Of a stretch of 64,000 nt of DNA, positions 12,201-15,200 are shown one piece after another. Numbering within the stretch: the stretch's first letter is position 1; each line of letters starts with the position of its first letter. The position numbers are program-made. The stretch is from the NCBI GenBank assembly GCA_000165345.1, contig CM000435.1, positions 256,001-320,000 on the forward strand. The letters are read 5' to 3'.

Positions 12201-15200
12201 ATATTGATTTTAATTTATTTGATGAAGTAATAAAAGAAATACCTCCTCTTATATTCTTTTTTAATCCTATAGAAAATAATAAAGCATAAAAAGAATTGGA
12301 TGCTAAATATATACCAGAATTATCCATAAATAGATATTCTGGATCCCCTAATATTGATGAACAAACAAATATATCGCAAAATCCTTGTCTATTTACATAT
12401 ATAACTTTTCTTGTAGTTTTTGATTTCTTTTCATCATTTGATGATGATAATTTTGTATTTTTATCTAAATTCTCAGATATCCAAATACAACCAAAACATA
12501 AAAGTATTACTCTTGAGAGACCATTCAAAAATATTGAAAAGAAGATTATTCTTAAATGTTCCAAATACATTAATTCTATTACCATTGAAAATATTGTAAA
12601 CATAATTAAACAAATAGAAAGAATGATAGATCTTGTGATCAAAATAGGAAATCCTATTATTTTTCTTAAAATTGATGTTTTAGTTTGACCCCAAATAGGT
12701 ATATATGGATTAATACCAGTAGATTCATCAGCAAATTGTCTAAATTTTTCCATTTTCTTTTAATTATTTAAGAATTAAATTTAACTAGATTTAATTAATT
12801 TCTATATTCACTCACTATTTGAAATATAAGTAATTATTAATTTACTAAGTTAAACGTGAGTTATTATTATTACTATTATTATACTTGGTTATTAGAATCT
12901 AATTTTCGAAAGATCTCGTAAAATAATATAAGATTCTAATCTTTTTGTTTCAATAGTTATTTCTTCTTTCTAGTCTTTTCTTCCCATTTCCTCTTTCTCC
13001 CCCCTATTTCCCCTCTTTGGAGACATGTCCATGAATTGCATTAATATTGTGTTAATATTAAAGGAGAGCATGATATGTGTAAAAAAGTTTATTTGGGATA
13101 TAGAAAACAAAATTTAAAAAAAGAACAAGAAAAAGAGAAAATAATGGAAATATAAAGAATTTTAACATTTTTTTTCTTCAAAAAAAAAAATCACATTTTT
13201 TTTTTTATTTTTACATACATTATATACCGGCGTACACGTAATTCCTGCATATACCGGTAATAATACCGGTATAGGCAAATATTGAAATTAATAAAAAACG
13301 AAATAAAAAAAAATTTATATATTATTAAATATAATATATTAAAAGAATTCAATGCTTTTAGCCAACTATTCATTGTCTTTTATTTGATTTTATTTGAAAA
13401 AATGGTAAGTTTATTTGTTGGTTTTGGTCATAATATTATTGGTCATATTACTCTAATGGGAAAGGGATTATATTATATCGATTTTACAAAAACAAACTAT
13501 TGTTATTAATATTAATATTATTATTATTATTATTATTATTTATTCCCACTAACTTTTTATTAAATAACAAATTATTATGAAAGGATCTAATATCAATTTC
13601 ATATTTGGTTGAAGATGGTATCAAGTAGAATCAAATACATATATAATCGAATACATATATAATTGAATCCCATATATAATCAAATCAAAAATACTTGGGA
13701 TTAGAACAAGTGGGACCCCAAGCTTTCATTACTCTTCTTTTTCCTCATCTTCTTCCTCCTCTTCTCTTTCATCCCCCCCCCTCTTCCTCCTCCTCTTCTT
13801 TTTCCTCTTCTCCATTAAGAGTTTTGACACTACCAACCAAATTTTTACATTTAACTTTTAATTAATTGAAATTTTTCTATAAAGCTATTTTTTAATTTTC
13901 TACAAACTCTAATAGAGAAACAGGTAGTGGTAACAGTGGAGCTCAAGAATGATTTACAAATAACAGGAACTTTACATAGTATTGATCAATATTTGAATAT
14001 AAAGCTAAATAATACAACAGTAAATCAAAACGAGAGTTTTATTCATTTGGGATCTCTCAAGAATTGCTTTATTAGAGGAAGTGTTGTAAGATATATCTTC
14101 TTTCCTCCTTCTGAAGTGGATATTGAACTTCTTCAGAAAGCTTGTAGAAAGGAGTTAAGAAGTATGAATGATTGCAAAGAAAAGCAAAAGTGAGATTTCT
14201 TTCTTTTTTTTTTTTTTAATGAGATAAATATGAGTCCTGATGAGAGTTGGATATGATAGACTAGTCTTATAACTTATAATTTTATGTTTGGATTATTTTT
14301 TTCGCCATTTTCATCCGTGATTCCTTCTCTTCTTCTTCCTCTTCCTCTTCTTCTTCCTCTTACAACAGAAAATGAAGGAGAAACAATCCAAGTTATACAT
14401 ATGAAAAGAAAAACAAATATTTTCTTTTATTAATTAAAGAAATAAATTTAAAAGTAATCAACAAGAAAAAGAATTATAAAACAATTTAAAAAAAAAAAGT
14501 TAACACAATTAGCACGAGATATAATAAGTAATAATTCAAAGAAAAAGAATCCAATATCTAAAATAAATTAAGAAATCAAGTAATTATTAATGATTGAAGT
14601 TTCTCTGAAAGTGAAAGTTGAACTCTTGTTAGTTCTGTCAAACATCCAATAATTAATGCATCTTGAGTAGAATTGCTTTTAATGATATTATAAATATTAT
14701 ATTCAAAATCATAAATAGAATGAATAGCATAATCAATTTGTCTTCCTATCATTGGATCCATAGAAACTTCACCAGAAAGTACTTTCTTTACATAATTCTG
14801 ACATCTCTGAACTAGAAGAATAAGTTTTGTTAATAATTGAGAAACATCACCAGATTGTAAACTATAATTTGAATTATTTAAAGGTAAAACTGTACATATT
14901 TCATCCTCTGGACCAAGAATTGTTCTAGGAAGACTCTTTGGAGGAATTCCTACAGCATTTAAATGATGTTTCTCAAGTAATGGTCTTAAAATTCTTGAAA
15001 TATGAAGTCTTTCACATGGACTTGCAACAATATCTAATGGAATTGGTCTAAAAATTGAAACTATAGAATTTGTCCATGTTGATTGAATTTGAATATATCC
15101 ATTAATAGATAACTTTCCATTTGAAAATGAAGGATCCACAACAATATGAATAGGCTCAGATAATAATGGAGTTTGTTGAAATTTTGAACTACCAATATCT

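Follow-up and report, generated by a model that had tools for sequence, protein, structure and literature searches.

We describe the structure of the LSm2 gene in a 64,000-nt stretch of Cryptosporidium parvum chromosome 7 (NCBI GenBank assembly GCA_000165345.1, contig CM000435.1, positions 256,001 to 320,000 of the forward strand). This stretch is hereafter called the window, and positions refer to it unless indicated otherwise. Very probably, the gene starts with an ATG at 13402..13404 that is joined to a second exon at 13885 by removal of a 480-nt phase-0 intron. This model is already public, and introns that immediately follow the start codon have been described as a class, so our analysis correctly re-derives what is known rather than adding a new gene structure. 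What we establish here comes from the splice signals, the logic of the reading frame, the conservation among orthologues and the agreement with deposited models.

By homology, the gene is C. parvum LSm2, encoding a subunit of the LSm ring. Exon 2 translates as LFFNFLQTLIEKQVVVTVELKNDL...KEKQK*, 102 codons followed by a stop at 14191..14193, and the spliced product (M plus exon 2) is a protein of 103 amino acids (aa), MLFFNFLQ...KEKQK, which aligns from residue 1 with human and yeast LSm2. Residues 6-72 match the Pfam LSM domain PF01423 with 55.9 bits against a cut-off of 23.4 (E = 3.4e-15). The top seven matches among solved structures in the PDB (human, budding yeast and one more LSm2 of unstated species) are all LSm2, with E = 8e-31 to 6e-24 and alignments beginning at query residue 1 or 2; the next paralogue among the PDB matches is SmD1, at E = 4e-06. 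Protein-level identity to C. parvum entries is 100% in the homology search, which bears out an earlier reading of this DNA as a Cryptosporidium-type genome. From the family assignment, the protein would be a member of both the LSm2-8 and the LSm1-7 rings and would bind U6 small nuclear RNA (snRNA).

The mechanical open reading frame (ORF) track of the window begins this gene at a GTG at 13927 and yields 88 aa only, against the 103 aa of the deposited protein. The original prediction, made from the sequence without database searches, had stated that this track underestimates the coding sequence (CDS), that the conserved N-terminus is encoded in frame upstream of the GTG with no ATG of its own, and that an in-frame TGA at 13867 closes the frame. 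All of this is what we find: the five open codons before 13885 read NFSIK, and the first in-frame ATG within exon 2 comes only at codon 95. Because of the TGA and the late position of that ATG, an unspliced transcript cannot encode the conserved N-terminus.

The junction that had been proposed as the way out of this difficulty, ATG|GTAAGT at 13402..13410 joined in phase 0 across 13884|13885, holds at every coordinate. The acceptor reads ...tttttctataaAG|CTA, with its AG at 13883-13884. As GTAAGT is the first hexamer of 84% of Cryptosporidium introns (PMC2483917), the element has the consensus 5' splice site as well as the AG 3' splice site of a Cryptosporidium U2-type GT-AG intron. Its layout is that of a start-codon intron, in which an ATG is followed by a GT donor and an AG acceptor restores the frame at conserved residue 2. 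Within the window, ATGGTAAGT is found once on the two strands, at 13402, versus ~0.46 occurrences expected; the lone site is thus not significant by itself, and the weight of the argument lies with the orthologues. The other two ATGGTAAG sites of the window, at 35081 (+) and 933 (-), each then read GTAAGA, and we set them aside as further start-codon introns because, by eye, both appear to continue as open reading frame.

A comparison with LSm2 loci of related Cryptosporidium species had been suggested as a check, and it comes out in favor of the two-exon model. The start codon and donor ATG|GTAAG and the phase-0 acceptor AG|CTN are kept in 10/10 Cryptosporidium loci examined, with introns of 143-486 nt. 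Across these loci, the ATG itself is invariant and the consensus layout is ATG|GTAAG(T/C) followed by AG|CT(A/T/C)TT(T/C)TT(T/C)AA. In nine orthologous loci (~103 kb strand-bases, both strands), ATGGTAAG occurs exactly once per locus and always at the LSm2 start. In all ten loci, the frame of exon 2 is closed by a stop 0-5 codons upstream, and a contiguous ATG is lacking. The two-exon model yields an intact protein of 103-107 aa in every orthologous locus, with identities of 77-100% across species.

Deposited annotation agrees. The exact 103-aa protein is found in NCBI and UniRef as CUV07085.1, KAL3126895.1, KAL5367416.1 and PPS94832.1. In the telomere-to-telomere annotation of CpBGF (GCA_035232765.1), the gene span of 918 nt consists of a 438-nt CDS and a 480-nt intron, and the protein passage ...LILFEKM|LFFNF corresponds exactly to the 13404|13885 junction. 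This annotation was curated in Apollo from PacBio Iso-Seq and stranded RNA-seq (PMC12179316), and it is from that published curation, not from reads examined here, that we infer actual splicing in C. parvum. Five deposited models of C. parvum and C. hominis type use the ATG|GTAAGT donor, with introns of 480, 485, 486, 435 and 480 nt. With the deposited LSm2 models of these two species (CUV07085.1, PPS94832.1, WRK33273.1), our model shares locus, acceptor and protein, and there is no biological difference between them; beside them, the 88-aa ORF with its GTG start and a 107-aa partial CDS from 2004 are outdated views.

Several observations weigh against this structure. At 480 nt, the intron is ~5 standard deviations above the C. 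parvum mean: 213 introns of this species have a median of 61, a mean of 82 and a standard deviation of 73 nt (PMC2483917), and a later survey gives a mean of 99 bp (n=688; PMC4637869), so the length had rightly been called unusual. Two deposited models, in GCA_045269125.1 (L011) and GCA_048859185.1 (L012), pick a nearer donor at 13615, giving introns of 291 and 267 nt, respectively. GenBank records the CpBGF protein WRK33273.1 as 5'-partial and not as starting at the ATG at 13402. Finally, the exact spliced-junction strings of both donors were found in none of the metagenome contigs, a result that is uninformative; all contigs with the exact 103-aa protein are genomic.

The choice made by those two models amounts to an alternative in which the nearer ATG, 13615..13617, forms the end of the first coding exon, with GTATCA as its donor and the same protein as its product. 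The resulting 267-nt intron is closer to the genome norm, and the site is kept in C. parvum, in the C. hominis-type loci and in locus L010. The original prediction had named this weaker ATG|GTATCA as a possible upstream exon at about 13612; the site exists and is used in deposited models, but it lies at 13615 and is not conserved. GTATCA shares only its first three bases (3/6 positions) with GTAAGT. In an alignment of five sequences (two C. parvum assemblies, a C. hominis-type locus, L010 and C. meleagridis), ATG|GTAAGT is the same throughout, while C. meleagridis has ATG|GAATCA at the nearer site, so that no GT donor is possible there. The nearer site has no counterpart at all in C. bovis, C. 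xiaoi, C. serpentis, C. andersoni and the loci L013 and L014, and the Iso-Seq-curated model uses the far donor. Moreover, if the transcript starts near 13276, a messenger RNA (mRNA) spliced after 13617 would carry upstream AUGs at 13352, 13402, 13456 and 13577 before its start codon. We regard exclusive use of the nearer donor as very unlikely.

It is less likely still that both donors are used as alternative 5' splice sites, giving the same protein behind different 5' leaders. Each ATG|GT site would join the one acceptor in phase, each is kept within the C. parvum / C. hominis group, and independent annotation pipelines have chosen different ones; yet the weaknesses of the 13615 donor apply here equally, and alternative splicing is reported to be rare in C. 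parvum, with three putative cases (PMC8744675). There is next to no chance that the gene lacks the intron and is translated from a non-AUG codon shortly before 13885 (e.g., ATA at 13879) or from the mechanical ORF's GTG, or that it is a decaying pseudogene: the 2004 Iowa II entry EAK90680.1, a 107-aa partial CDS that starts with NFSIK right after the TGA and has no Met, would fit such a reading, but it is one of 636 proteins in the 2004 annotation that do not start with Met (PMC12179316), the in-frame stop in four Cryptosporidium loci is the acceptor's own TAG, which leaves zero upstream codons, the ATG|GTAAG signal is conserved genus-wide, and the protein is intact in all the species compared.

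Returning to the two-exon model with the donor at 13405, the extent of its first exon can be estimated from the CpBGF record. The CDS of WRK33273.1 starts at L001:3001, equivalent to window position 13276, and 12 nt separate it from the nearest in-frame stop on its 5' side (TAA 13261..13263). This is most simply explained if the CDS start marks the 5' end of the annotated mRNA. With 13276 taken as that end, exon 1 is probably ~129 nt long, comprising a 5' untranslated region (5'UTR) of ~126 nt and the ATG. The earlier description of an ATG-only micro-exon is thus accurate for the coding part, a single codon, and does not extend to the transcribed exon. As deposited, WRK33273.1 bears 42 residues of translated 5'UTR.

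The putative 5'UTR contains a short upstream ORF (uORF) that ends 14 nt upstream of the LSm2 ATG. C. meleagridis retains its ATG and stop, with 4/11 residues different, and C. bovis does not have the uORF. A 40-nt block (13234-13273) immediately ahead of the annotated gene start is 100% identical in four Cryptosporidium lineages and contains 3/4 of the window's ATACCGGT matches, versus 0.24 expected. The motifs lie at 13251-13258 and 13263-13272, a related TATACCGGCG is found at 13223-13232, and C. bovis and C. xiaoi have TATACCGGT ~140 nt 5' of the LSm2 ATG. We consider the block a candidate promoter element or transcription-factor site.

Near the other end of the intron, the sequence TTAAC at 13851..13855 is a plausible candidate for the branch site. 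It is of the yUnAy type, its branch A at 13854 would lie 30 nt upstream of the 3' splice site, and the surrounding ACATTTAAC is kept in the parvum clade, L013 and L014 (six lineages); the equivalent zone contains CTAAC in C. bovis and CTAAT in the gastric species. A clear branch-point consensus is reported to be absent in C. parvum (PMC2483917). Put together, a pre-mRNA presumably starting near 13276 would carry an exon 1 made of the ~126-nt 5'UTR and the ATG, with the consensus GTAAGT immediately after it; the U2-type intron would be removed, TTAAC being the likely branch site; and the ATG would be joined in phase 0 to the CTA at 13885, giving the 103-aa protein.

The body of the intron is AT-rich (GC content 0.27) and contains three tandem-repeat blocks. 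The intron is exceptionally long in the clade of C. parvum, C. hominis and C. meleagridis, and these blocks hold both this excess and the variation from 420 to 486 nt within the clade. The unique sequence is 80-90% invariant in four lineages, as are the flanks. All three blocks vary in copy number between species, and (ATT)n also varies between C. parvum assemblies (480 vs 486 nt): this block has 6 additional nt in another C. parvum assembly and 24 nt fewer in the other aligned species. The 16-nt repeat block reaches its greatest length in the C. hominis-type locus; C. parvum and L010 have shorter versions, and in C. meleagridis it is mostly missing. The third block had been described as a 72-nt pure C/T tract; it is in fact 82 nt long and interrupted by two A's, its longest uninterrupted pyrimidine run being 42 nt (13772..13813). 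Within the parvum clade, no other part of the intron is as poorly conserved as this tract (23-50% invariant columns). C. bovis, C. xiaoi, C. serpentis, C. andersoni, L013 and L014 have nothing comparable, their longest pyrimidine runs being 8-16 nt. The three blocks could act as typing markers.

We found no evidence of a known RNA family or a protein-coding gene embedded in the intron. An Rfam E-value scan of 12700..14600 returned nothing reaching the gathering score, only low-complexity sub-threshold matches, and a scan of five orthologous loci returned no match. ARAGORN found no transfer RNA (tRNA), and the predicted fold of the intron is not more stable than that of shuffled sequence (z = -0.42). 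Together with the finding that the unique parts are no more conserved than the flanks, these results led us to reject an intron-hosted non-coding RNA, such as a small nucleolar RNA. Two orthologous loci from Logan contigs, L013 (SRR31860986) and L014 (SRR31861040), have intron GC contents of 0.52 and 0.47. We considered this as a possible sign of a hidden gene and rejected it, as the coding regions of these genomes are GC-rich throughout (~0.5) and there is no Rfam match. At 90% identity, L013 LSm2 groups with the protein of C. canis, and L014 LSm2 falls in a separate cluster.

Other deposited Cryptosporidium models depart from the two-exon structure. For C. meleagridis (GCA_039657295.1; L006, gene 3001-3552; P0010), a 137-aa ‘LSm2’ begins in the intron, takes the C/T tract as coding sequence (SSSSSCSSFHHHHHHLHPPLPPLPPLP) and lacks the first third of the Sm domain; with the conserved ATG|GTAAGT at L006:2821 and a 420-nt intron, the product is instead an intact protein of 103 aa. 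The C. xiaoi model (L005 3001-3004) places its donor, ATG|GC, 75 nt into the intron, though an ATG|GTAAGT is present at 2926, the same site as in C. bovis. The C. andersoni model (L004 3001-4422) has an extra 5' exon and a 3' read-through. A literature search for Cryptosporidium LSm2 found nothing specific.

The position of the intron reaches beyond the genus. LSm2 of Plasmodium gonderi has ATG|GTAAAA and a 302-nt intron, and that of Vitrella brassicaformis has ATG|GTAACT and a 151-nt intron; the Vitrella junction is shown directly by a spliced Logan contig (run ERR558152) reading ...gcagcATGCTGTTCTTC. In Chlamydomonas, LSm2 has no start-codon intron, its first intron coming after codon 14 or 15. 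We therefore reject a pan-eukaryotic origin of the position and limit our claim to the apicomplexans and the chromerid examined. Judged from these sequences, the position between codons 1 and 2 is an old one for an intron, going back at least to the ancestor that apicomplexans and chromerids share. Plasmodium, Vitrella and Chlamydomonas have a second LSm2 intron at the conserved YPH(L/M) motif (~residue 55-57). All Cryptosporidium loci have lost this one, and the start-codon intron is therefore the only one that Cryptosporidium kept.

How does this intron compare with known classes? Start-codon introns, as surveyed by Nielsen and Wernersson (2006, BMC Genomics 7:256, PMC1626468), are phase-0 introns between codons 1 and 2 that are enriched in short conserved proteins without a signal peptide, and their positions are conserved above average. 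The LSm2 intron shares each of these properties: it lies exactly between the ATG and codon 2 in phase 0, its host protein is short, highly conserved and without a signal peptide, and its position is conserved in distant relatives (Cryptosporidium, Plasmodium, Vitrella). It differs in its setting, since the survey covered vertebrates, arthropods, fungi and plants, with ribosomal proteins over-represented, and here the host is an apicomplexan splicing and mRNA-decay factor. With typical Cryptosporidium introns (Irimia & Roy 2008, PMC2483917; Isaza et al. 2015, PMC4637869) it shares GTAAGT, AG and the AT-rich body, but at 480 nt it is far longer than the median of 61 and the means of 82-99 nt, and it carries the three repeat blocks; the orthologous introns elsewhere in the genus are also long (143-326 nt). 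Internal micro-exons (~3-30 nt) resemble the LSm2 arrangement insofar as only three coding bases lie 5' of the intron. Exon 1 does not belong to this class, however: it is a first exon with a 5'UTR, no upstream intron is implied in C. parvum, the CpBGF record reaches 126 nt 5' of the ATG, and no special exon-definition mechanism is needed.

The surroundings of the gene are conserved as well. The gene order SNAPC3-like, unknown gene, LSm2, JAB/MPN protein is kept in every fetched Cryptosporidium locus that reaches far enough. LSm2 and the JAB/MPN gene are convergent, and the short spacer between them contains a second pure C/T tract, 41 nt of (CTCTTC)n at 14321-14361 (+), where weak sub-threshold matches to microRNA families look like low-complexity artefacts. 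Elsewhere in the window, GC content is 0.42-0.44 at 26001-30000, versus 0.24-0.35 in the remainder. Feature coordinates are collected in the table.

Table. Features of the LSm2 locus in window coordinates, with intron lengths and positions in orthologous loci (positions in the last three rows refer to the named contigs)
Feature	Position	Strand	Length	Remarks
Invariant upstream block with repeated ATACCGGT motifs	13234..13273	+	40 nt	Candidate promoter element
Putative 5'UTR part of exon 1	13276..13401	+	~126 nt	From CpBGF CDS start
Short uORF, MLLANYSLSFI*	13352..13387	+	11 codons	In putative 5'UTR; frame differs from LSm2; read from sequence
LSm2 start codon ATG	13402..13404	+	3 nt	Sole coding bases of exon 1; first in-frame ATG of its frame; GTAAGT directly after
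5' splice site GTAAGT	13405..13410	+	6 nt	Fits the 84% hexamer; GTAAGT or GTAAGC in 10/10 Cryptosporidium loci
Phase-0 GT-AG spliceosomal intron (start-codon intron)	13405..13884	+	480 nt	
(ATT/TAT)n microsatellite in intron	13498..13540	+		TRF: period 3, 14.3 copies
Alternative candidate donor ATG|GTATCA	13615..13623	+		Judged not the main site
16-nt tandem repeat AATCAAATACATATAT in intron	13629..13685	+		TRF: ~3.5 copies
C/T-rich tract in intron	13732..13813	+	82 nt	A interruptions at 13747 and 13771
ACATTTAAC, candidate branch site	13847..13855	+		TTAAC 13851..13855, branch A 13854; motif conservation
In-frame TGA inside intron	13867..13869	+	3 nt	Closes frame upstream of exon 2
Exon 2, LSm2 codons 2-103 and stop	13885..14193	+		Translation, Pfam LSM domain, PDB matches
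C. meleagridis LSm2 intron			420 nt	
L013 (Logan Cryptosporidium contig) LSm2 intron			326 nt	
L014 (Logan Cryptosporidium contig) LSm2 intron			316 nt	
C. bovis LSm2 intron			172 nt	
C. xiaoi LSm2 intron			172 nt	
C. serpentis LSm2 intron			143 nt	
C. andersoni LSm2 intron			143 nt	
Second LSm2 intron, P. gonderi (L015)	~1973/2427			At YPH(L/M) motif
Second LSm2 intron, Vitrella (L016)	1819/1932			At YPH(L/M) motif
Second LSm2 intron, Chlamydomonas (L018)	1057/1605			At YPH(L/M) motif

Since LSm2 is a core protein of the U6 small nuclear ribonucleoprotein and its AUG joins the reading frame only by splicing, one may ask whether the long start-codon intron (143-486 nt versus a median of 61) is, rather than a passive relic, a regulatory device that ties LSm2 output to spliceosome capacity in an autoregulatory loop. 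We consider this improbable; what speaks for it is the persistence of a long intron. Under such regulation, the efficiency of splicing could be adjusted by the C/T tract, which is clade-specific, or by the weak second donor at 13615.

The finding is of little biological interest in itself, and its practical value lies in annotation quality: deposited Cryptosporidium LSm2 models disagree, and the cross-species comparison provides one consistent two-exon model for all deposited LSm2 variants. It also offers a small and clean example of an ancient intron retained in an intron-poor genome.

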